Assembly (NCBI GenBank): GCA_035348395.1
Contig: DAOPQX010000002.1
Location: 1 to 30,894, forward strand
DNA: 30,894 nt
Source: Vicinamibacterales bacterium
GTDB lineage: Bacteria > Acidobacteriota > Vicinamibacteria > Vicinamibacterales > Fen-181
Direction of reading: 5' to 3'
Shown: positions 2,172-19,424 of the stretch, piece after piece
Layout: every line of letters starts with the position of its first letter
Numbering within the stretch: the stretch's first letter is position 1
Notes under the pieces: generated by a model
The model's database searches: none
Told to the model about the DNA's origin: nothing
The model's input: only the letters and a program-made list of their open reading frames with translations
Translations under genes and position numbers: made by a program

Positions 2172-2201
2172 CGGCGAGCAGGGCTTCAGCCCTGCTCGCC
2201 G
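2172..2201. terminator. 13-bp perfect hairpin between convergent fbaB and secA2 (bidirectional terminator or REP-like element)
   Basis: CGGCGAGCAGGGC-TTCA-GCCCTGCTCGCCG, read directly from the sequence. Confidence 0.7.
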
Positions 2202-4615
2202 CGTTCTACTTGACGACCGCCCTTCCTCTTCTTGCTCCATCGCCTCCAGAAAATCGTGATCGCCGTCACCAGCGTGACCGGCCAGTAGATCACCCCGAGG
2301 ATCCCGGCGGCGGTCGCCAGCGTGCGGCTGGCGAGCAGCGACGAGCCCAGCGGCGAGAACGGGTTGTCGTCGACCAGGTACGTCCAGGTCGCCGACGACC
2401 GCGACGGGCCGATGCCGGAGAAGTCGATCCCCTCCTCGCTCGCGCGGAGCCGGGCGAAGAGCCCGATCGTTTCGTCCTCCACGCGGTGCATCATCGCGTC
2501 GAACGCCTCGATCAGCTGGCGGCTGAACTCGGTGAGGGGGTCCTTGCCGCCGTAGCGCTGCAGGTGGATTCCCTCGCGCACGTCCTCGACGAACGCCAGG
2601 TGGTCGGTCCAGGCCTGGTCCAGCGCGCGCACGATCAAGCGCTGCTCGGCGCGGCGCACAGCTGCTTCGCCGGCGGCCCGGACGAGGGCGGCGTACTGCT
2701 CCGGCGCCCGCGCCCGGCAGACGTCGGGGTCGGCCTCGTCGCGCAGGAAGGCCTGGCGCCGCTCGTACACCATCCGCCGCTGGTCGTCCACCATCTCGGA
2801 GTACCGCCAGAGCGTCCGGCGGATCTCGAAGTTCTGACCCTCGATGATTCGTTGCGCCCGCGCGATCTCGCAGACGACCACCGGGTCGCGCAGCGGCCCG
2901 TCCTGCCGCGCGGGGCGGTGGCGCGGCGGGATCAGCGACATGACGCCGTAACGCTTGATCAGGTCATCCTCGATCGAGATGAAGAAGCGCGACGAACCCG
3001 GGTCGCCCTGGCGCCCCGACCGTCCACGGAGCTGGTCGTCGACCCGCCGGCTCTCGTGCCGGTTGGTGCCGACGACGTAGAGGCCGCCGAGGGCTTCGAC
3101 GCGCGCCCGATCGGCCGGGTCGCCGGCCCCCAGCACGATGTCGGTGCCGCGCCCCGCCATGTTCGTGGAGATCGTCACCGCGCCGGTCGTCCCGGCCGTG
3201 GCCACGATGGCGGCCTCGCGCGCGTCGTGCCTCGCGTTGAGCACCTGGCACGGCACCCCCGCCGCCGAGAGCGCCTCCGCGAGCGCCTCCGACTCGGCGA
3301 CGCTCGCCGTGCCGACCAGCACCGGGCGTCCGGTCGCGTGCACCTCGGCGATCTCGGCCACGATCGCCGCGTTCTTCGCCTCGCGGTGGGTGAACACCTC
3401 GTCGTCTTCGTCCCTCCGGACGCCAGACTTGTGAGGGGGGAAGACCACCGTGCGCAGTCCGTAGAACTCGTCGAACTCCTGGGCCGCCGGTTCAGCCGTC
3501 GCCGTCATCCCCGCGAGGCGCGGGTAGCGGCGCACGAAGTGCTGGATCGGGATGGAGCCGAGGATCCTTCCCTCGGCGCTGACGGCCAGGCCTTCCTTCG
3601 CCTCGACGGCGGAGTGGATGCCGTGGGGCCACCGCCGGTTGTCGGCGACGCGGCCGGTGAACTCGTCAACCAGTTCGATCCGCCCGTCGCGGACGATGTA
3701 GTCGCGGTCACGGTGAAGGAGAACGCGCGCGTGCAGTGCGACGTGCAGCGCGCTGAGCAGCAGGCGCCGGTCCGGCGACGTGAGGTCGGCGCCGAGCAGC
3801 CTCGAGGCGTGGGCGAAGCCGGCCTCGGTCAGCACGACCGTGCGCTCGTACTCGTCGGCGTCGAAATCCCTGCCGGCGACGAGCGCTTCGGCAGCCTCCG
3901 CCACCGCCCGATGGTCGACCCCGGCGTCGGGGGCGGCGCCCGCGATGACCAGCGGCACGCGCGCCTCGTCGATCAGGATGAAGTCGGCTTCGTCCACGAT
4001 GGCGAAGTGAGGCGGGCGCTGCACCAGGTCGGCGGGGCCGGCCGCGGTGTGGTCGCGCAGGAAATCGAATCCCGCTTCCTTGGCGGTCACGTAGGTCACG
4101 TCGGCCGCATAGGCCCGGCGACGCTCCTCCCGGGACAGGCGCTGGCCGACGAAGGAAGGGGTCAGGCCGAAGAACCGGTAAACCGGCCCCATCCACCCGG
4201 CGTCGCGCTCGGCGAGGTAGTCGTTGGCGGTGAAAACGTGCACGCCGCGGCCGGTGAGCGCGTTGAGGACCGCCGGCATGACGGCCACCAGCGTCTTGCC
4301 TTCACCCGTCGCGAGCTGCGCTAGGCGGCCGCGGTGGAGGGCGACCGCCGCTTCGACCTGGACGTCGAAGGGGCGCAGGCCCAGCAGCCGCGCCGACGCC
4401 TCGCGCACGAGGGCGAAAACCTCCGGCAGCAGGTCGTCGAGCGGGCGGCCGCTTGCGGCGGCCTCCCTCGCCGCGGTGGCCCGCTCCGCGAGCGCGGCGT
4501 CGGAGAGGCTGGCCGTCTCGATGGCCTCGACGGCCGCGAGCGCTTGCGCGTACGGCTTCAGGTCGTGGTCGATCGGGACGCCGGCGGCGTGAAGGTACGC
4601 ACGGCGGATGTGCAT
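2186..4615 (-). CDS. secA2: Accessory SecA2-type translocase ATPase (mycobacterial-type architecture) with a hydrophobic C-terminal extension
   Basis: Motifs ATGEGKT (Walker A), IVDEAD.ILIDEAR.PL, GMTAT, STNMAGRGTDI and ESRRVDDQLRGRSGRQGDPG. The helical wing domain is very short and there is no C-terminal Cys/Zn motif. TWTYLVDDNP resembles the recalled C-terminus of mycobacterial SecA2. Confidence 0.85.
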   Translation of the reverse strand: MHIRRAYLHAAGVPIDHDLKPYAQALAAVEAIETASLSDAALAERATAAREAAASGRPLDDLLPEVFALVREASARLLGLRPFDVQVEAAVALHRGRLAQLATGEGKTLVAVMPAVLNALTGRGVHVFTANDYLAERDAGWMGPVYRFFGLTPSFVGQRLSREERRRAYAADVTYVTAKEAGFDFLRDHTAAGPADLVQRPPHFAIVDEADFILIDEARVPLVIAGAAPDAGVDHRAVAEAAEALVAGRDFDADEYERTVVLTEAGFAHASRLLGADLTSPDRRLLLSALHVALHARVLLHRDRDYIVRDGRIELVDEFTGRVADNRRWPHGIHSAVEAKEGLAVSAEGRILGSIPIQHFVRRYPRLAGMTATAEPAAQEFDEFYGLRTVVFPPHKSGVRRDEDDEVFTHREAKNAAIVAEIAEVHATGRPVLVGTASVAESEALAEALSAAGVPCQVLNARHDAREAAIVATAGTTGAVTISTNMAGRGTDIVLGAGDPADRARVEALGGLYVVGTNRHESRRVDDQLRGRSGRQGDPGSSRFFISIEDDLIKRYGVMSLIPPRHRPARQDGPLRDPVVVCEIARAQRIIEGQNFEIRRTLWRYSEMVDDQRRMVYERRQAFLRDEADPDVCRARAPEQYAALVRAAGEAAVRRAEQRLIVRALDQAWTDHLAFVEDVREGIHLQRYGGKDPLTEFSRQLIEAFDAMMHRVEDETIGLFARLRASEEGIDFSGIGPSRSSATWTYLVDDNPFSPLGSSLLASRTLATAAGILGVIYWPVTLVTAITIFWRRWSKKRKGGRQVERGEQG

Positions 4616-4644
4616 GTTCCGGGAATGCTACTCTCGACAACTTG

Positions 4645-4674
4645 GTATAGGATATCTATATCGGTATTCTATAC
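4645..4674. promoter_or_regulatory. AT-rich nested inverted repeats in the secA2/padR divergent gap; candidate PadR operator and promoter
   Basis: TATAG(4646-50)/CTATA(4656-60), GATAT(4651-55)/ATATC(4658-62) and GTATAG(4645-50)/CTATAC(4669-74), all in a strongly GC-rich background. Confidence 0.55.
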
Positions 4675-4688
4675 ATGAGGCCCGCAGC

Positions 4689-5027
4689 ATGACTCCCTCT
4701 CGCGACGACACCTCGACCCTGCTCCGCGGCACGCTCGGGCTGCTCATCCTCCGGACGCTCGAGCTGCAGCCGCTGCACGGTCTGGCGATCGCCGACCGGA
4801 TCGCGCAGGTGACGCGAGGCACGTTCCGGGTGCCGGCGGGTTCGTTGTTCCCGGCGCTGCACCGGCTCGAGCAGGGCGGGTGGATCCGCGGGGAATGGAC
4901 CTTCACGGGCGACGGCCGCCGCGTCAAGACCTACTCGCTGACGGCACCGGGACGCCGGAAGCTGGCCACCGAGCAGCGGAACTGGGCGCGCACGGTTGCC
5001 GCGATGTCGCAGGTTCTCGGGTCGTAG
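4689..5027 (+). CDS. PadR family transcriptional regulator (acidobacterial type)
   Basis: 112 aa from MTPSRDD. Motifs LLRGTLGLLIL, LHGLAIADRI, GSLFPALHRLE..GWI and Y.LT..GRR.L. It lies directly upstream of an ADOP permease. Confidence 0.92.
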   Translation: MTPSRDDTSTLLRGTLGLLILRTLELQPLHGLAIADRIAQVTRGTFRVPAGSLFPALHRLEQGGWIRGEWTFTGDGRRVKTYSLTAPGRRKLATEQRNWARTVAAMSQVLGS

Positions 5028-7832: not shown

Positions 7833-8795
7833 TTACACCGCCTCGATCGTCGACGGCGGCTTGGTGGCGATGTTGTAGGTCACGCTCACCACGCCCGGCA
7901 CCGCCTCGAGGATCTCGTCCGCGATTCGCCGCAGCAGCTCGTACGGCAGGTTGGTCGGCGTCGCCTGGCGCGCGTCGAGGCTGTCCCAGCACCGCACCTC
8001 GATCTGGCCGCCGAACTGGCGCTTCCCGCCGCGCATGCCGGTGACCCGGTCCTCGTGGAGGATGGCCAAGTACTGGAAGGCGCCGACGCCAGCGAGCAGG
8101 CGCTCCACCACGGTCGTCGCCTTTCGTACCGTGTCGACCCGCTCCCGCGTCACCTCGCCGATCACCCTCGCCGCCAGCGCCGGGCCGGGGAACGGGATCC
8201 GGTTGAACAGCTCGGCGGGCAGGCCGAGCGCGCGGCCCACCGCCCGGACTCCGTCCTTGCGCAGCTGGACGAGCGGCTCGAGGATCCGGTAGCCGAAGGC
8301 CTCCTGCGGGTCGATGCCGAGCTGCTCGAACACGTTGTGCTGCCGCTTGATCCCCGCCACCGTCTCGTCCACGTCGGTCAGGATCGTCCCCTGCAGCAGC
8401 GACCGCGCGCCGCTCTCGCGGACGATGCGGCCGAAGACCTTCTTGTAGAAGGTCTGGGTAATCGCCTCGCGCTTCTCCTCGGGGTCGGTCAGGCCGGCGA
8501 GGGCCGCGAAGAAGTCGTCGCGCGCGTCCACGATGTCGACCGGCACCCCGAGCGAACCGAAGAGCCCGGCGACGCGCTCGGCCTCTCCCTCACGCATCAG
8601 GCCGTTCTCGATGAACACCGACTTCAACCGCGGCCCGAGCGCTCGATGCCCCAGCATGGTGACGGTGGAGGAGTCCACGCCGCCCGAGAGGGCGCTGATG
8701 GCCTCGCCGTCGCCGACCGCGGCCCTGATCTCGGCCACCTTCTCCTCGATGAACCGCTCGGTGTCCAGCTCGCGCAGCGTGATTTCCTTGATCAT
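7833..8795 (-). CDS. Stand-alone GMP synthase-like ATP pyrophosphatase subunit (GuaA subunit B type, no glutaminase domain)
   Basis: PP-loop SALSGGVDSS, LLQGTI, EPL..LRKDGVR, RIPFPGPALAARV and C-terminal KPPSTIE. Length 320 aa, SD AAAGGA. Confidence 0.82.
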   Translation of the reverse strand: MIKEITLRELDTERFIEEKVAEIRAAVGDGEAISALSGGVDSSTVTMLGHRALGPRLKSVFIENGLMREGEAERVAGLFGSLGVPVDIVDARDDFFAALAGLTDPEEKREAITQTFYKKVFGRIVRESGARSLLQGTILTDVDETVAGIKRQHNVFEQLGIDPQEAFGYRILEPLVQLRKDGVRAVGRALGLPAELFNRIPFPGPALAARVIGEVTRERVDTVRKATTVVERLLAGVGAFQYLAILHEDRVTGMRGGKRQFGGQIEVRCWDSLDARQATPTNLPYELLRRIADEILEAVPGVVSVTYNIATKPPSTIEAV

Positions 8796-11781: not shown

Positions 11782-14211
11782 ATGAACAAAGCACTTCTCG
11801 TTGCCGTCCTGGCCGGTTGTACCGCGGTCGTGTCGTCCCAGCCCCGGGCCGACTACCCGGCGGCGCCGGTTCCCTTCACCGACGTCCACCTCTCGGATTC
11901 ATTCTGGGCGCCGCGCCTCGAGCGGAACCGCTCGGTGACCATCCCCCACAACCTGGCGCAGCTCACCGAGAGCAAGCGCGTCGAGAACTTCGACCGGGCG
12001 GCCGCGGCCATGGCGAGCGGCCGGGAGGGCCAGTTCTGCTCCGTCTTCCCGTTCGACGACTCCGACGTCTACAAGGCGATCGAAGCCGCGTCGTACGCCC
12101 TCGCCATCAAGCCGGATCCGGCGCTCGACGCGCGCATCGACGAGCTGATCGCCAAGGTCGCGAAGTCGCAGGAGCCGGATGGGTACCTCTACACCGCCCG
12201 GACGATCGGCGGCCCGCCGCCGCAGCCCTGGGTGGGCAGCCAGCGGTGGTCGTATCTCTACCTGAGCCACGAGCTGTACAACGTGGGGCACCTTTACGAG
12301 GCGGCCGCCGCCCATTTCCAGGCCACCGGCAAGCGGAGCCTGCTCGACATCGCGATCAAGAGCGCCGACCTGGTCGCCAAGGAATTCGGCCCCGGCAAGC
12401 GGACCAATCCCCCGGGCCACCAGGAAATCGAGATCGGCCTGGTGAAGCTGTACCGCGTCACGGGGAACGCGGCATACCTCGACCTCGCGAAGTTCTTCAT
12501 CGACGTGCGCGGCCGCACAGACGCGCGGATCCCCTTCGAGCTGGACGGCAGGACGCAGCTGCTCTACGGCGAGTACGCGCAGGACGACAAGCCGTTTGTG
12601 GAGCAGACCGAGGCGGTGGGCCATGCGGTGCGTGCCGGCTACCTCTACGCGGGAGCGGCCGACGTGGCCGCCCTTCGCCAGGACAAGGCCTACATGGCGG
12701 CCCTCGAGCGCATCTGGGCCGACGTGGTGGGGAAGAAGCTGTACATCACTGGCGGCATCGGCGCGGCCGGCGCGTGGGAGGGCTACGGCCCGGCGTACCG
12801 CCTGCCCAACGCCAGCGCCTACGCCGAGACTTGCGCCAACATCGCCACCTTCCTCTGGAACTCGCGGATGCAGCGCCTCGCCCTCGACGCGAAGTACGCC
12901 GACGTGATGGAACGGATCCTCTACAACGGCGTGCTGTCGGGGCTGTCGCTCTCGGGCGACCGTTTCTTCTACCCGAACCCGCTGGCCTCGTTCGGCCAGC
13001 ACGAGCGCACCCCCTGGTTCACGTGCGCCTGCTGCCCGCCGAACGTCGCCCGCGTCCTCACCTCGGTGCCGGGCTACTTCTACGCGGCGTCCCAGGACAG
13101 CGTCTACGTGAACCTGTTCGCCGAGGGGCGGGCGGCGATGTCGCCTCGCGGGACGAAACTGGAGCTGCGCCAGAAGACCGAGTACCCGTGGCAGGGTGAC
13201 ATCCTGATCGAGGTTGACCCCGAGCGCCCCGTCGCGTTCCGCCTGCACGTCCGCATCCCCGGCTGGGCCCGGAACCAGCCCGTGCCCTCCGACCTCTACC
13301 GGTACATCGAGCCGCCCGCGGGAGTCCCCGTGCTTCGCGTGAACGGCTCGGAGGTGAAGCCCCCTGTCGAGAAGGGCTACGCGGTGATCGACCGCACGTG
13401 GAAGTCAGGCGACAAGGTCGAGCTGAGCCTGCCGATGCCGATCCGGCGCGTGGTCGCACACGACGCGGTCGAGGCCGACAGGGGGCGCGTCGCGATCGAG
13501 CGCGGGCCGCTGGTGTACTGCGCCGAGGGGCCCGACAACGACGGCCGGGCCGCGAACCTCGTCCTGCCCGACGGGGCCGCCCTGGCCGCCGAGAAGCGGC
13601 CCGACCTGCTGGGGGGCGTCGTCGTGATCAAGGGCGTGGGCGAGGCAGTTGCGGAGAAGGGGGGGCGGGTCGGCTCGGCGCCGAAGCCGGTGACCTTGAT
13701 CCCGTACTACGCCTGGGCCAACCGCGGAAAGGCCGAGATGGCCGTCTGGCTCGCGCGCGATCCGTCACGGGCCCGCCCGGTCCGCGAGCCCGGCCTGGCG
13801 GCGAAGGCGAAGGTGGCCGCCTCACCGAAGGCCGCCTACCCGCAGCGCGTCAACGACCAGTACGATCCCGAGTCGTCGGACGATGGGACCGGCTACATGC
13901 ACTGGTACCCGCAGAAGGGGAACCTGGCGTGGGTCGAGTACGCGTTCGACGCCCCGGTGACCGTGTCGGAGTCGTCGGTGTACTGGTTCGACGATACCGG
14001 CGGCGGCAGCGTCCGCGTCCCCGCGTCGTGGCGGTTGCTCTACAAGGACGGGCAGGAGTGGAAGCCGGTCGTCCTCAAAGAGCAGCCCGGCGTGGCCCGG
14101 GACCGCTGGAACACCGTGACGTTCGCGCCGCTGACCACCAGTGCCCTCCGCCTCGAGATCCAGGCGCAGAAGGACTGGTCGGTCGGCGTGCACGAGTGGA
14201 GCATCCGGTAG
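11782..14211 (+). CDS. Glycoside hydrolase family 127 (DUF1680; beta-L-arabinofuranosidase-like) with a C-terminal F5/8-like domain
   Basis: Motifs FPFDDSDVYKAIE, SHELY, GHQEIE, GHAVR, AETCA (Zn ligands), CACCPPN (Cys nucleophile), FYPNPL and LIPYYAWANRG. N-terminal signal peptide. Confidence 0.92.
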   Translation: MNKALLVAVLAGCTAVVSSQPRADYPAAPVPFTDVHLSDSFWAPRLERNRSVTIPHNLAQLTESKRVENFDRAAAAMASGREGQFCSVFPFDDSDVYKAIEAASYALAIKPDPALDARIDELIAKVAKSQEPDGYLYTARTIGGPPPQPWVGSQRWSYLYLSHELYNVGHLYEAAAAHFQATGKRSLLDIAIKSADLVAKEFGPGKRTNPPGHQEIEIGLVKLYRVTGNAAYLDLAKFFIDVRGRTDARIPFELDGRTQLLYGEYAQDDKPFVEQTEAVGHAVRAGYLYAGAADVAALRQDKAYMAALERIWADVVGKKLYITGGIGAAGAWEGYGPAYRLPNASAYAETCANIATFLWNSRMQRLALDAKYADVMERILYNGVLSGLSLSGDRFFYPNPLASFGQHERTPWFTCACCPPNVARVLTSVPGYFYAASQDSVYVNLFAEGRAAMSPRGTKLELRQKTEYPWQGDILIEVDPERPVAFRLHVRIPGWARNQPVPSDLYRYIEPPAGVPVLRVNGSEVKPPVEKGYAVIDRTWKSGDKVELSLPMPIRRVVAHDAVEADRGRVAIERGPLVYCAEGPDNDGRAANLVLPDGAALAAEKRPDLLGGVVVIKGVGEAVAEKGGRVGSAPKPVTLIPYYAWANRGKAEMAVWLARDPSRARPVREPGLAAKAKVAASPKAAYPQRVNDQYDPESSDDGTGYMHWYPQKGNLAWVEYAFDAPVTVSESSVYWFDDTGGGSVRVPASWRLLYKDGQEWKPVVLKEQPGVARDRWNTVTFAPLTTSALRLEIQAQKDWSVGVHEWSIR

Positions 14212-14228
14212 GGCAGCCGGGGGAGGAC

Positions 14229-14717
14229 ATGCACTACGCCTGGGAGGACAGCCCGGTCGGCCGGTTGTTGATTGGCGGCGACGAGCGCGGGCTTCGCTTC
14301 GTCCTCTTCGAGGAAGGCCGCGCGCCCGTCGTGCCCGAGCCCGGGTGGCGGGAAGACCCGGCGGCCGTGGCCGACGCGGTCACGCAGCTGCGGGAGTACT
14401 TCGCCGGAGTGCGGCGCCGCTTCGACCTCCCCCTGGCCCCGGCCGGGACGCCCTTCCAGCTGCGGGTCTGGGAGGCGCTGCGGCAGATTCCTTACGGCGA
14501 GACGGTGTCGTACGGCGAGCTGGCCAGGCGCGTGGGGTGCCCGAACGGGTCGCGGGCCGTGGGGCTGGCCAACGGCGCGAACCCGTTGTCGATCGTGGTG
14601 CCGTGCCACCGGGTCGTCGGCGCCGGCGGCAGACTGGTTGGCTACGGAGGGGGGCTTGGAGCGAAGCGGTGGTTGCTGGCGCTCGAGCAGGGAAGCAGGC
14701 GGATGTTGAACCTGTAA
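14229..14717 (+). CDS. ogt: Methylated-DNA--protein-cysteine methyltransferase, 162 aa
   Basis: Motifs GTPFQLRVWEALRQIPYGETVSY, RAVGLANGANP and the active-site PCHRV. SD GGGAGG precedes the ATG at 14229. Confidence 0.95.
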   Translation: MHYAWEDSPVGRLLIGGDERGLRFVLFEEGRAPVVPEPGWREDPAAVADAVTQLREYFAGVRRRFDLPLAPAGTPFQLRVWEALRQIPYGETVSYGELARRVGCPNGSRAVGLANGANPLSIVVPCHRVVGAGGRLVGYGGGLGAKRWLLALEQGSRRMLNL

Positions 14718-14718
14718 C

Positions 14719-14776
14719 CGGGAACGCGAGAGCGGAGGACGGAAACGGGGGACATTCTTTCCGCCGCCCGTTCCCG
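14719..14776. repeat. Long imperfect intergenic inverted repeat
   Basis: CGGGAACG(14719-26)/CGTTCCCG(14769-76), with inner pairs GCGG/CCGC and CGGAAA/TTTCCG. Confidence 0.45.
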
Positions 14777-14797
14777 CAATCATTGAGGGGCATTCCG

Positions 14798-16123
14798 ATG
14801 AATCGACGCGACTTCATGAAGACGACGGTGGTGGCGACGGCGGCGAGCGCGATCGGGACCAGGGCTGCGGGGGCGAAGACCGTGCAGGCCAACGATCGCA
14901 TCCAGGTGGGCTACATCGGCTGCGGCGCCCGGGCACACCAGCTCATGGATGCGACCGTGGCCCAGCCCGGCATCGAGGTCGTGGGGCTGTGCGACGCCTA
15001 CGCGGGCCGGATCGAGCGGGCGCAGGCGCGGGTTGGCGGGCGGGCGCAGGTCTACCGCGACTACAAGGAGCTGCTCGCGAACCCCGCGATCGACGCGGTC
15101 TTCATCGTGACCCCCGACCACTGGCACAAGACGATGACCCTCGACGCGCTGGCCGCGAAGAAGGACATCTACATCGAGAAGCCGTTCACCTTCACGGTGG
15201 ACGACGGCGTCGCGCTGGTCGATGCCGTGAAGAAGTCGGACCGCATCCTCCAGGTGGGCAGCCAGAGCGTCAGCTCGGCGGAGTACGGCACGGTGCGCGA
15301 GCTGATCCAGGGCGGCAAGATCGGCAAGGTCGTCATGGTGCGGGCGGCCTACAACCGCAACAGCGACAGCGGGGCCTGGCTCTACCCGATCCCGCCCGAC
15401 GCCAGCCCGAAGACCGTCAACTGGGAGCAGTTTCTCGGGCCTGCGCCGAAGCGGCCCTTCGACCTGGCGCGCTTCTTCCGGTGGCGCTGCTACTGGGACT
15501 ACTCGGGCGGCGTCGCGACCGACCTGTTCGTGCACCTGGTGTCGTGGATGCACTTCGCCACCGGCGCCAAGGCGCCGAAGATGGTGGTGGCGACCGGCGA
15601 GACCTACAAGTACGGCAAGACCCACGAGGTGCCCGACACGGTCAACGCGCTGCTGACCTACCCGGAGGGGTTCACCGCCAACCTGACCTGCACCTTCAAC
15701 AACGAGCAGGGCGCCGAGTCGGGCATGGAGATTCTCGGGACCAACGGCAGCCTGGTCGTCCGCGGCGGCACGGTGACCTTCAAGCCCGAGCCGCGGCGCG
15801 AGGACAACCGGTGGGTCGTGGCCTCGTGGCCCGAGGCGATGGAGAAGGCCTACTACGACGACCCCAAGGTGCAGGCGATCGAGTCGCCGTTCCTGTGGGA
15901 TCCAAAGATGGCGGGCGGCGTCGAGACCTGGGTCGCCGAGGGGCGCGACGACACCTACACCCACATTGCGAACTTCTTCGCGTCGGTCAAGTCGCGCAAG
16001 CAGCCGGTCGAGGATGCCTTGTTCGGCCACCGCGCGGCGGCCTGCGCGCACATGGTGAACCGGTCGATCCGCGAGAAGACGTTCGTCGAGTGGGATGCCG
16101 CCAACGAGCGGATGAAGGGATAA
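14798..16123 (+). CDS. Gfo/Idh/MocA family NAD(P)-dependent oxidoreductase with a Tat signal, 441 aa
   Basis: Starts MNRRDFMK. Motifs VGYIGCGAR, VTPDHWH, YIEKP, LQVGSQ, FFRWRCYWDYSGG and DLFVH. Confidence 0.92.
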   Translation: MNRRDFMKTTVVATAASAIGTRAAGAKTVQANDRIQVGYIGCGARAHQLMDATVAQPGIEVVGLCDAYAGRIERAQARVGGRAQVYRDYKELLANPAIDAVFIVTPDHWHKTMTLDALAAKKDIYIEKPFTFTVDDGVALVDAVKKSDRILQVGSQSVSSAEYGTVRELIQGGKIGKVVMVRAAYNRNSDSGAWLYPIPPDASPKTVNWEQFLGPAPKRPFDLARFFRWRCYWDYSGGVATDLFVHLVSWMHFATGAKAPKMVVATGETYKYGKTHEVPDTVNALLTYPEGFTANLTCTFNNEQGAESGMEILGTNGSLVVRGGTVTFKPEPRREDNRWVVASWPEAMEKAYYDDPKVQAIESPFLWDPKMAGGVETWVAEGRDDTYTHIANFFASVKSRKQPVEDALFGHRAAACAHMVNRSIREKTFVEWDAANERMKG

Positions 16124-16139
16124 GAGGAGGGCAGGTCCG

Positions 16140-17033
16140 ATGATTCGCAGCCGCCGGGAATTCTTGTCCGACAGTGCCGTCGTCCTGGCAGGGGCCGCCG
16201 TGCTCGGCGACCCCGCCACCTTGTTGGCCGCCCCCCCGCCCGCGAAGTGGCCCATCGGGTGCTTCAACCGCCCGTGGGCCCAGTGGCCGTTCGCCGAGAC
16301 GCTGAAGGGTGTCAAGGCCGCCGGGTACGGCCTGACCGGCCTGCTCACCCGCACGAAGATGGACCGGTTCATCGCCGACGATGCGACGCCCGAGTACCTC
16401 GAGGGGCTGAAGGCCGCGATTGCCGCCAGCGGGGTGAAGGCGGTCATGGGGGCGCTCAGGAGCCGCCACGACGTCCCGCTGGAACAGACCACCGCCAGCC
16501 TTCACAAGCAGATCGACAACGCGGCCTTCCTCGGCCTGCAGTCGGTCATGACCTTCGGCATCGACAACCCGGCGCAGCTCGACCACTACTTCAAGGCGAT
16601 GGCCGATGCGGCCGCGTACGGCCAGGAGAAGGGCGTCCAGGTCGTGATGAAGCCGCACGGGGGCAGCAGCGGCGCCTCCGACGAGATCATCGCCGCGATG
16701 AAGAAGGTCAACCACCGCAACTTCTCCATCTGGTACGACGCCGGGAACATCATCTACTACACCGGCAAGGACCCGATCGAGGAGCTGAAGCCGATCGTCC
16801 AGTACGTCACCGGGTTCTGCGCGAAGGACTGCGGCCAGCCGAAAGGCGACGTGATGATCCAGTTCGGCACCGGCAAGGTGGACTTCAGGGGCGTCTTCAA
16901 GGTGATGAAGGACGCGGGGTTCAACGGCCCGATCATGGTCGAAGGCGTGGCCCCGGGCGAGACGCCCGAGGCGGTGGCCGCCAACGCCCGCGCCAACCGC
17001 GAGTTCCTCGAGAAGGTTCTGGCGAGCCTGTAG
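16140..17033 (+). CDS. Xylose-isomerase-like TIM-barrel protein (sugar phosphate isomerase/epimerase family) with a Tat signal and an atypical metal site
   Basis: Tat motif SRREFL. Motifs WYDAGN, AKD, FGTGKVDF and GFNGPIMVE. Confidence 0.82.
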   Translation: MIRSRREFLSDSAVVLAGAAVLGDPATLLAAPPPAKWPIGCFNRPWAQWPFAETLKGVKAAGYGLTGLLTRTKMDRFIADDATPEYLEGLKAAIAASGVKAVMGALRSRHDVPLEQTTASLHKQIDNAAFLGLQSVMTFGIDNPAQLDHYFKAMADAAAYGQEKGVQVVMKPHGGSSGASDEIIAAMKKVNHRNFSIWYDAGNIIYYTGKDPIEELKPIVQYVTGFCAKDCGQPKGDVMIQFGTGKVDFRGVFKVMKDAGFNGPIMVEGVAPGETPEAVAANARANREFLEKVLASL

Positions 17034-17072
17034 CACGCGGCAGCCGTTCGGGCTGTTCGCGAGGAGATATCG

Positions 17073-18005
17073 ATGCCACACCACACAACCCGTCGCGACT
17101 TCCTCAAGGCCTCGGTGGCCGGGACGCTCGGCGCCGCGGCCGGCCTGCGGGCGATCGGCCTGGGCGCGCAGGGAAGCGTCGCGGGCCGCCTGGCCGTCTG
17201 CAGCTGGTCGCTGCAGCCGGCCTCAGCAGACGACCTGTTCTCGAAGCTGGCCGCCACCGGCCTGACCCGGGTGCAGATCGCCCTCGACCCGATCCGGACG
17301 AACGAGGGCGGGGGATGGGCCGACTTCGGCGCCAGGGCCTCGAAGCGCGGCGTGATGCTCGTCTCCGGGATGATCGCCACGGTTGGCGAGGACTACTCCA
17401 CGCTCGAGAGCATCCGCCGCACCGGCGGCGTGGTGCCCGACGCCACCTGGCCCGAGACGTGGAAGAACATCCAGGCCGACCTCGAGCTGGCCTCCAAGCT
17501 CGGCCTCGGCCTGGTGAGCTTCCACGCCGGCTTCCTGCCCCACGAGGAGAGCGACCCCACCTTCGCGACGCTCCAGGGCCGGCTTCGCCAGATTGCCGAC
17601 CTGGCGGCCTCCAAGAAGGTGCAGGTCGCGCTCGAGACCGGCCAGGAGGAGGCGGCGACGCTCGCCACCTTCCTGAAGAAGCTCGAGCGGCAGAACGTCG
17701 GGGTCAACTTCGACCCGGCGAACATGATCCTGTACGACAAGGGCGACCCAGTGGCCGCGCTGAAGGTGCTGTCGCCCTGGCTGCGCCAGGTCCACCTGAA
17801 GGACGCGGTGCGAACGAAGACGCCGGGGGAGTGGGGCGAGGAAGTGCGGCTCGGCACCGGCCAGGTGAACTGGAAGGCGTTCTTCAGCACGCTGGACTCG
17901 GTCGGCTTCAAGGGCAACCTGTGCATCGAGCGCGAGGCCGGCAAGGAGCGGGTGGCCGACATCCGCGCCGCGCGCGAGTACGTGGAGAAGCTGGTGGGGA
18001 AGTAA
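17073..18005 (+). CDS. Xylose-isomerase-like TIM-barrel sugar isomerase/epimerase with a Tat signal
   Basis: Tat motif TRRDFLK. Canonical E/D/H/E metal motifs LETGQE, NFDPAN, HLKD and CIERE. Confidence 0.88.
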   Translation: MPHHTTRRDFLKASVAGTLGAAAGLRAIGLGAQGSVAGRLAVCSWSLQPASADDLFSKLAATGLTRVQIALDPIRTNEGGGWADFGARASKRGVMLVSGMIATVGEDYSTLESIRRTGGVVPDATWPETWKNIQADLELASKLGLGLVSFHAGFLPHEESDPTFATLQGRLRQIADLAASKKVQVALETGQEEAATLATFLKKLERQNVGVNFDPANMILYDKGDPVAALKVLSPWLRQVHLKDAVRTKTPGEWGEEVRLGTGQVNWKAFFSTLDSVGFKGNLCIEREAGKERVADIRAAREYVEKLVGK

Positions 18006-18043
18006 CGGCGAACGCAATCTGAAGACCCATCCCACGCGTACCA

Positions 18044-18084
18044 GCGGTTGAGAGGCGCGGGCGCGCCTCGCGCGTCTCAACCGC
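18044..18084. terminator. Intergenic hairpin upstream of the GntP permease
   Basis: GCGGTTGAGA(18044-53)/TCTCAACCGC(18075-84) form a perfect 10-bp outer stem, with a GC inner stem. Confidence 0.5.
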
Positions 18085-18107
18085 ACCCGGGGCCTGGAGT
18101 TCAACGC

Positions 18108-19424
18108 ATGCCGCTCGTCATCGTGGCCCTGGGGATCGCGGCGCTGCTCGCGCTGATCCTCTTCCTCAAGCTCAACTCGTTCCTGGCGTTCGTCATCGTG
18201 TCGCTCGGGGTGGCCCTGGCCGAGGGGATGGGCCTCCACGAGGCGGTGGCGTCGATCGAGAAGGGGATCGGCGACACCCTCGGCATCCTCGTCATGATCC
18301 TCGGCCTCGGGGCGATGCTGGGCAAGCTGGTCGCCGACAGCGGGGCCGCCGAGCGCATCACCTCGAGCCTGATCGGCCTCTTCGGCCTCGGCCGCGTGCA
18401 GTGGGCCCTGATGCTCACCGCGTTCATCGTCGGGGTCCCGCTGTTCTACGACGTCGGCTTCGTGATCATGATGCCGATCGTCTTCGCCGTCGTCGCCTCC
18501 ACCGGCGTGCCGCTGCTGTACGTCGGGCTCCCGACGCTCGCTTCGCTGTCGGTCACCCACGGGTACCTCCCGCCGCACCCGGCCCCGACCGCCATCGCGA
18601 CGATGTTCGGCGCCGACATCGGGAAGACGCTGGTGTACGGCGTCCTGATCGCGATCCCGGCAATCATCGTCGCAGGCCCGATCCTGTCGCGCGGCCTGCG
18701 GAAGGTGAACGCGCGGCCGATGGACGAGTTCACCGCGGCGCCCTCGGCCGTCGAGCGAAGCCTCCCGGGTTTCGCCACCAGCGTCGTCTCGGCGCTGCTG
18801 CCGGTGATCCTGATCGGCTCGGCCACCATCGCCGCCTACCTTCTACCCGAGGGCAACGCGGTGCGCCGGGTGCTCGGATGGGCAGGCAACCCGGTGATCG
18901 CCATGCTCGTGTCGCTGCTGCTGGCGATCTACACGCTCGGGCTGGCCAGGGGCCGCGAGATGGGCGACATCATGGCGTCGCTCGCCCACTCGATCTCGAG
19001 CCTGACCATGGTGATGCTGATCATCGGGGGGGCGGGCGCGCTGAAGCAGGTGCTGGTGGACAGCGGCGTCAGCGCCTACATCGGCGGCCTGCTGAAGGGG
19101 TCGGCGGTGTCGCCGCTGGTGCTGGGGTGGCTGATTGCGACGGTCCTGCGGGTGTGCGTCGGCTCGGCGACCGTGGCCGGCATCACCACCGCGGGCATCA
19201 TCCTGCCGCTGGTCAGCACGTCCGGCGTCAACCCCGAGCTGATGGTGCTGGCGATCGGCTCGGGCAGCCTGATGCTGGCGCACGTGAACGACGGCGGCTT
19301 CTGGCTGGTGAAGGAGTACTTCAACCTGAGCATCGTGGACACGATCAAGACCTGGACGGTGATGGAGACGGCGGTCGGGGTCACCGGCCTGCTGGGCGTC
19401 CTGGTGCTGAACGCGTTCATCTGA
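18108..19424 (+). CDS. Gluconate:H+ symporter (GntP/GntT family), 438 aa
   Basis: Motifs LGAMLGKL.ADSGAA, LFYDVGFV, THGYLPPHPAP, ALKQVLVDSG, GSATVA and HVNDGGFWL.KEYF. Confidence 0.93.
   Translation: MPLVIVALGIAALLALILFLKLNSFLAFVIVSLGVALAEGMGLHEAVASIEKGIGDTLGILVMILGLGAMLGKLVADSGAAERITSSLIGLFGLGRVQWALMLTAFIVGVPLFYDVGFVIMMPIVFAVVASTGVPLLYVGLPTLASLSVTHGYLPPHPAPTAIATMFGADIGKTLVYGVLIAIPAIIVAGPILSRGLRKVNARPMDEFTAAPSAVERSLPGFATSVVSALLPVILIGSATIAAYLLPEGNAVRRVLGWAGNPVIAMLVSLLLAIYTLGLARGREMGDIMASLAHSISSLTMVMLIIGGAGALKQVLVDSGVSAYIGGLLKGSAVSPLVLGWLIATVLRVCVGSATVAGITTAGIILPLVSTSGVNPELMVLAIGSGSLMLAHVNDGGFWLVKEYFNLSIVDTIKTWTVMETAVGVTGLLGVLVLNAFI

Follow-up and report, generated by a model that had tools for sequence, protein, structure and literature searches.

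Does the SecA2 family of export motors include members that carry a membrane anchor of their own? SecA is the textbook soluble or peripheral export motor, and for decades there has been debate on whether and how it embeds in the membrane. The question is raised here by the secA2 gene (2186..4615, minus strand, stop codon included) in a DNA stretch of 30,894 nucleotides (nt), referred to as the window (G+C 70%), from contig DAOPQX010000002.1 of a Vicinamibacterales metagenome-assembled genome (MAG; GCA_035348395.1). The host is described as a soil acidobacterium, and its MAG of 3.56 Mb in 452 contigs is 86% complete. In translation the gene gives a protein of 809 amino acids (aa), termed P0001, for which an initial annotation had proposed a hydrophobic tail acting as a membrane anchor. 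The reading favored here, with a probability of about 0.7, is that P0001 is an accessory SecA2-type ATPase whose last ~45 residues form a membrane anchor and which works at the inner membrane with the ordinary SecYEG translocon.

The C-terminal tail of SecA2

Family membership was assessed with curated profiles. P0001 scored 803.1 bits against NCBIfam TIGR04221 (mycobacterial-type SecA2), above the equivalog cut-off of 725 and in line with the family named in the initial annotation; the match covered residues 26–763 of P0001 and profile positions 24–756 of 762, and four Pfam SecA domains were found in the protein. Scores against other SecA2 models were far under their cut-offs (563 against 930 for TIGR03714, and 496 against 1100 and 666 against 1085 for further models), and the cut-offs of SecA1 models were not reached either. 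M. tuberculosis SecA2 (4uaq, 778 aa) aligned up to P0001 residue 755, with 13 residues remaining, which agrees with the earlier statement that the mycobacterial protein ends near TWTYLVDDNPF. Given where the TIGR04221 match and the 4uaq alignment end, about 45 residues of P0001 are thus without a counterpart in the known family.

The coordinates 2186–2356 correspond exactly to residues 754–809 and the stop codon, all on the minus strand. This region opens with a conserved linker (2324..2356; residues 754–764) in which S759, L760, A762 and R764 are nearly invariant and in which the TIGR04221 profile ends. The linker is followed by a hydrophobic segment (2246..2323; residues 765–790) of 26 uncharged residues and, directly after it, by the basic cluster RRWSKKRK (2222..2245; residues 791–798), which brings six K/R into eight residues; the run of about 25 hydrophobic residues and the basic cluster quoted in the initial annotation are therefore both present. 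The last 11 residues (799–809) and the stop codon (2186..2221) form a non-conserved end that overlaps a terminator stem. The best 19-residue Kyte-Doolittle window of the whole protein lies within the segment (771–789) and scores 1.90, the best window outside the tail reaching 1.34. Its helical hydrophobic moment is low (0.16) and its mean hydrophobicity high, so that the segment is transmembrane-like and not amphipathic. In an AlphaFold2 (AF2) model, residues 755–798 form one long helix of low to moderate confidence after a low-confidence stretch starting at residue 737, with predicted local distance difference test (pLDDT) values of 35–57 up to residue 780, ~78 for residues 781–790 and ~61 for residues 791–800. 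The only Pfam model weakly resembling the tail was that of the EGFR transmembrane-juxtamembrane segment, in the opposite orientation.

Conservation of the tail

A homologue search with residues 560–809 gave 973 environmental matches, of which the best 120 were used for tail statistics. All 120 carried an in-register tail, with an uncharged run of 22–40 residues (median 28) that always contained a proline, a median Kyte-Doolittle maximum of 2.1, a median moment of 0.12 and an Eisenberg mean of 0.75. At least three K/R were found in the 10 residues after the run in 120/120 (median 5), and the 10 residues ahead of it held a median of one. Between 7 and 38 residues follow the segment across homologues, the longest ends being partly acidic in some. 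Since the query included the tail, this search favors tail-bearing matches; a whole-protein search of family genomes, free of that bias, showed that all 12 full-length SecA2 genes (12/12) align through query residues 795–802. The tail is thus conserved in a clade, as the initial annotation had suggested checking, and does not stem from a lost stop codon.

At the level of single positions, P779 and R792 were invariant in a full-length alignment of 67 sequences. Among 116 unique tails, G771, A774, Y777 and T781 were strongly conserved, F789 was less strict (92/116) and R791 and W793 were also somewhat less conserved, while past residue 798 column entropy rose and occupancy fell. The pattern comprises a small-xx-small pair (G771, A774) and a central Tyr-Trp-Pro. 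Because particular residues are conserved beyond hydrophobicity, the set G771, A774, Y777/W778, P779, T781, F789 and R792 suggests packing on another membrane helix, which could belong to a second SecA2 tail or to a translocon subunit. The periodicity of tail conservation showed no clean peak at 100 degrees, so that a “conserved face” is a reading of individual columns only.

The SecA2 core and the export machinery

The SecA2 core (2357..4615, minus strand; residues 1–753) retains an intact Walker A motif GEGKT (residues 104–108) and DEAD motif (residues 208–211), and its motor residues are invariant in the 67-sequence alignment; from these motifs, SecA2 is predicted to be a working ATPase. 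Compared with SecA1 of a same-genus relative, it shows gaps of 72 aa at the helical wing, 58 aa in nucleotide-binding domain 2 (NBD2) and 18 aa in the preprotein-binding domain, and its end is devoid of the Cys/His zinc-binding tail, which places it within the reduced architecture of mycobacterial-type SecA2. M. tuberculosis SecA2 reportedly lacks the helical wing, and its reduced build has been described in terms similar to the gaps seen here. The AF2 model, generated from the same 67-sequence alignment, adopts a SecA fold (mean pLDDT 79.3), and the closest structures are those of SecY-bound SecA, 5eul and 6itc (TM 0.75–0.80).

A canonical secA was found next to the accessory one, in answer to a further check proposed with the initial annotation: the host MAG contains a SecA1 fragment with a canonical N-terminus at a contig end (C174), and a full SecA1 of about 960–1000 aa is present in every relative, with a Cys/His zinc-finger end seen in relatives. 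One SecY each was found in five relatives carrying a tailed SecA2; the zero SecY matches in the host MAG reflect its incompleteness. No Sec-related neighbor (secY2, asp) was found beside secA2, in keeping with the initial annotation, and SecB was not found in four genomes. The suggestion that SecA2 works with a partner other than SecYEG finds no support in these data. The host is a diderm, as first stated, since Omp85/BamA is present.

Proposed function and topology

The proposed anchor would consist of the conserved linker, a hydrophobic helix of ~26 residues with an invariant central proline and the polybasic stretch, and would take the place that a soluble zinc-finger tail occupies in the housekeeping SecA1. 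It would keep SecA2 on the cytoplasmic side of the inner membrane beside the single SecYEG, where the tethered motor might push a subset of proteins or act as a spare motor. We infer membrane insertion, the use of SecYEG and this role, as well as the permanence of the tethering, from the properties of the protein and its relatives. Membrane tethering is a required function of the SecA N-terminus that can be replaced by an artificial tether, so that a built-in anchor is a plausible alternative. The N-termini of the tail-bearing SecA2 proteins are devoid of the hydrophobic motif M-L-x-x-L-L-x-K-V-F-G of SecA1 and instead show an Arg-rich helix followed by G-x-P-V-E-Y-D-L; this comparison is not decisive, and SecA2 may have traded the N-terminal lipid-binding element of SecA1 for a C-terminal anchor. 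For tail-anchored proteins of Escherichia coli, C-terminal segments with a grand average of hydropathy (GRAVY) of 1.04–2.9 suffice for targeting and insertion (PMC6794478), and the P0001 segment, a single C-terminal hydrophobic segment with a score of 1.9, is within this working range.

Several observations weigh against an anchor of this kind. The charge bias of the tail, with one K/R before the segment and 5–6 after it, would by the positive-inside rule place the C-terminal flank in the cytoplasm, contrary to a classical N-in/C-out tail anchor. The only studied relative, mycobacterial SecA2, has been reported as mainly soluble. The AF2 model has low to moderate confidence for the tail (pLDDT 35–78), no conserved neighbor hints at SecA2 substrates in 20 loci, and no leader with a stalling motif was found in the 97-nt gap upstream of secA2 here. 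With regard to topology, the chances are slightly short of even that the tail is an N-in/C-out single span with the basic cluster carried across against the rule. It is also possible, if somewhat doubtful, that both ends are cytoplasmic, the helix being kinked or re-entrant at the proline and the basic cluster resting on anionic lipid head groups. That the helix is held by protein and not in lipid appears unlikely. The tail anchor put forward in the initial annotation is retained as a conserved transmembrane-like segment with a basic cluster, whereas its plain topology conflicts with the positive-inside rule.

The last of these arrangements shades into an improbable explanation in which the tail serves as a regulatory pseudo-substrate or plugs the translocon, docking in the preprotein groove of SecA2 itself or in the SecY lateral gate until it is displaced on activation, and provides no lipid anchor. 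Such a role has a precedent in the C-terminal linker of E. coli SecA, which occupies the substrate groove and influences activity (PMC6620043), and it would accommodate both the conservation of particular tail positions beyond hydrophobicity and a charge bias that is awkward for a membrane span. However, the AF2 helix points away from the body with no confident docking, segments embedded in lipid are typically helices of this kind, uniformly hydrophobic over 26–28 residues and of very low amphipathicity, and the order is opposite to that of signal peptides, in which the charges come first.

It is more improbable still that the tail is a peripheral helix lying in the plane of the membrane, with reversible lipid binding as in MinD or FtsA, so that SecA2 would cycle on and off the membrane. 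A basic cluster beside a Trp (RRW) is a common interfacial motif, and the two actinobacterial SecA2 proteins examined end at the corresponding position in short tails that are amphipathic and basic, but the very low median moment and the high Eisenberg mean given above leave the P0001-type tail devoid of a polar face, and an amphipathic peripheral helix was rejected on these grounds.

An artefact, whether a lost stop codon, a frameshift or an error in MAG assembly, was given next to no weight. The MAG is fragmented and incomplete, and the last 11 residues are non-conserved and run into the terminator stem; against this, the in-register tail recurs in the best 120 of 973 homologues, in 12/12 family genes and in divergent lineages with its Pro and Arg invariant, by which a lost stop codon or frameshift is refuted, and the G+C content at third codon positions (GC3) of the tail codons is 0.89, the same as in the rest of secA2 and of coding type. 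A cleaved sorting signal of the sortase/exosortase type (motif, transmembrane helix, basic cluster) resembles the tail in its three-part layout and charge bias, and many exosortase substrates occur in Acidobacteriota, but it was likewise dismissed, as P0001 has a cytoplasmic ATPase body without an N-terminal signal peptide, and the sorting-signal models of NCBIfam and Pfam gave no match to the tail even at E = 10.

Distribution and phylogeny

The close relatives with a tailed SecA2 are MAGs labelled Acidobacteriota or Vicinamibacterales. SecA2 was present in 15 of the 21 genomes of the host's own family, three of the 15 being split or broken, and in 0/20 genomes that belong to the same order but to other families. 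Four fairly complete genomes of the family have SecA1 only, and secA2 is therefore dispensable. In an even sample of the phylum, a hydrophobic-tailed SecA2 was found in 11 of 301 genomes, the host included. Other acidobacterial lineages show a shorter tail with a Gly/Ala-rich half, a proline, a Leu-rich half and then a basic cluster, which can be aligned with the P0001 tail and in which the proline is nearly invariant. Shorter hydrophobic tails also occur in MAGs labelled Bacteroidota and Ruminiclostridium (Bacillota), and a hydrophobic tail is seen too in one MAG dubiously labelled Enterobacteriaceae. The “mycobacterial” SecA2 family is not confined to Actinobacteria, all of the best 120 of 973 environmental matches bearing this tail; the ends of the two actinobacterial genes, in addition to being short, basic and amphipathic, are non-hydrophobic. 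When 1.84 billion representatives were searched with a profile of the tail alone, 179 clusters were found, most of them nameless contig-end fragments that carry little taxonomic information.

Some individual genomes deserve separate mention. In G319 (C12), G316 (C93) and G317, the SecA2 match comes in several pieces, marked by stops, overlapping frames or breaks between contigs, and these split genes of the family are possible pseudogenes or assembly errors. Tail-bearing SecA2 with 50–62% identity was seen in MAGs with unlikely labels, Enterobacteriaceae (L022/L074) and Bacteroidales (P0028), which probably reflect mistakes in binning or labelling and not transfer. In a genome of the same genus (G302; L060:7944–11372, minus strand), the secA2 frame is open upstream to 1142 aa; the extension resembles a GMP-synthase-C/NAD-synthase-like protein that is encoded by a separate gene in the window (7833–8795, minus strand), and the long frame is either a rearrangement with an internal true start or a fusion.

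In a Maximum Likelihood tree made with the tails trimmed off, 31 SecA2 rows were separated from 9 SecA1 rows with 100/100 support, and the P0001-type SecA2 formed a clade of its own (100/99). The deepest branches among the SecA2 rows form a polytomy, and a long stem leads to the actinobacterial pair, so that the tree does not decide between gain and loss of the tail. A further proposal, which must be considered unlikely at present, is that the hydrophobic-tailed form is the common and perhaps original state of TIGR04221, with actinobacterial SecA2 a fast-evolving offshoot that lost its tail, and that the tail is more than a lipid anchor and, by way of its conserved positions, makes the protein a fixed SecYEG subunit or a membrane-embedded dimer. 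If true, TIGR04221 SecA2 with a tail would be spread over several mostly diderm phyla and would constitute a natural “integral-membrane SecA”.

Genomic context of secA2

Downstream of secA2, a GC-rich hairpin of 13 pairs (2172..2201) lies between this gene and a convergent DeoC/LacD aldolase gene (1096–2160). The hairpin resembles a terminator and extends over the secA2 stop codon, and its stem encodes the last few SecA2 residues. On the other side, an AT-rich intergenic gap of 97 nt (4616..4712) separates the secA2 start from a divergent padR-like regulator gene with a PadR domain (4713–5027, plus strand), which is followed by a MacB/FtsX-type permease gene (to 7771, plus strand). The gap contains an imperfect palindrome of 30 nt (4645–4674), a candidate operator shared by secA2 and the padR-like gene. 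Further along the window, a run of sugar-use genes (11782–19424, plus strand) encodes a GH127 beta-L-arabinofuranosidase-like protein, a GFO/IDH/MocA oxidoreductase, two xylose-isomerase-like TIM-barrel proteins and a GntP permease.

A comparison of 20 loci revealed no neighbor conserved next to secA2 across lineages. The description of the gene as an orphan is correct in this sense, although for SecA2 of this type such isolation is the rule and not an oddity. The only recurring neighbor was the DeoC/LacD aldolase, within the host's own family alone, and it was rejected as a functional partner of SecA2 on the grounds that this recurrence amounts to shared ancestry. In the loci examined from g188, the main genus of the family (L062, L064, L065, L067), the aldolase gene is directly upstream on the same strand, and its convergent position here points to a local inversion within this family.

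Two other acidobacterial lineages with a tail-bearing SecA2 have, ahead of secA2, a small open reading frame (ORF) with a signal-like or membrane segment and RAPP plus one residue at its end, located 78 nt (L069:5460–5708, plus strand) and 45 nt (L071:10392–10751, minus strand) before the gene. These leaders are built like the secretion-monitoring arrest peptides surveyed in PMC10987492, and by this analogy they would fit a motor turned on by impaired export, an idea that does not apply to the window locus. A small multi-span ORF ending in GTPP upstream of another tail-bearing secA2 (L070:5417–5782, plus strand) is less convincing.

Comparison with known systems

The SecA2/SecY2 systems of streptococci and staphylococci (TIGR03714) and the SecA2 proteins of Listeria, Bacillus anthracis and Clostridioides resemble the present case in that a second SecA serves a subset of cargo. 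However, P0001 is under the cut-offs of their models, secY2/asp genes were not found, and there is no second SecY in the five relatives. In E. coli, the tail-anchored proteins DjlC and Flk (PMC6794478) are similar in having a large cytoplasmic body and a single C-terminal hydrophobic segment in the same hydrophobicity range; these model anchors have a short, weakly charged C-terminus and positive charges on the N-terminal side, whereas in SecA2 the charges are reversed and 7–38 residues follow the segment. Because of this reversal of charge, the tail is well suited to testing how C-terminal segments insert in bacteria.

The housekeeping SecA1, as exemplified by E. coli SecA (PMC6620043), shares with P0001 the motor, the preprotein clamp, the fold and the presence of a C-terminal appendage after the same core, but the SecA1 of relatives ends in a Cys/His zinc finger where SecA2 has a hydrophobic helix. 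A survey of SecA C-terminal tails in the same work does not mention a transmembrane tail, and a literature search on SecA2 tails found no description of a SecA with one.

The mycobacterial and actinobacterial “SecA2-only” systems (TIGR04221; M. tuberculosis Rv1821, PDB 4UAQ) share with P0001 the family score, the clade, the coexistence with SecA1, the absence of SecY2/asp and a reduced build devoid of the helical wing and zinc-finger tail. P0001 differs from them in its diderm acidobacterial host and in the ~45 additional C-terminal residues, which neither 4UAQ nor the two actinobacterial genes examined possess. A natural, widely conserved SecA paralogue with a built-in hydrophobic helix offers a direct handle on the effects of permanent tethering on a translocation motor.

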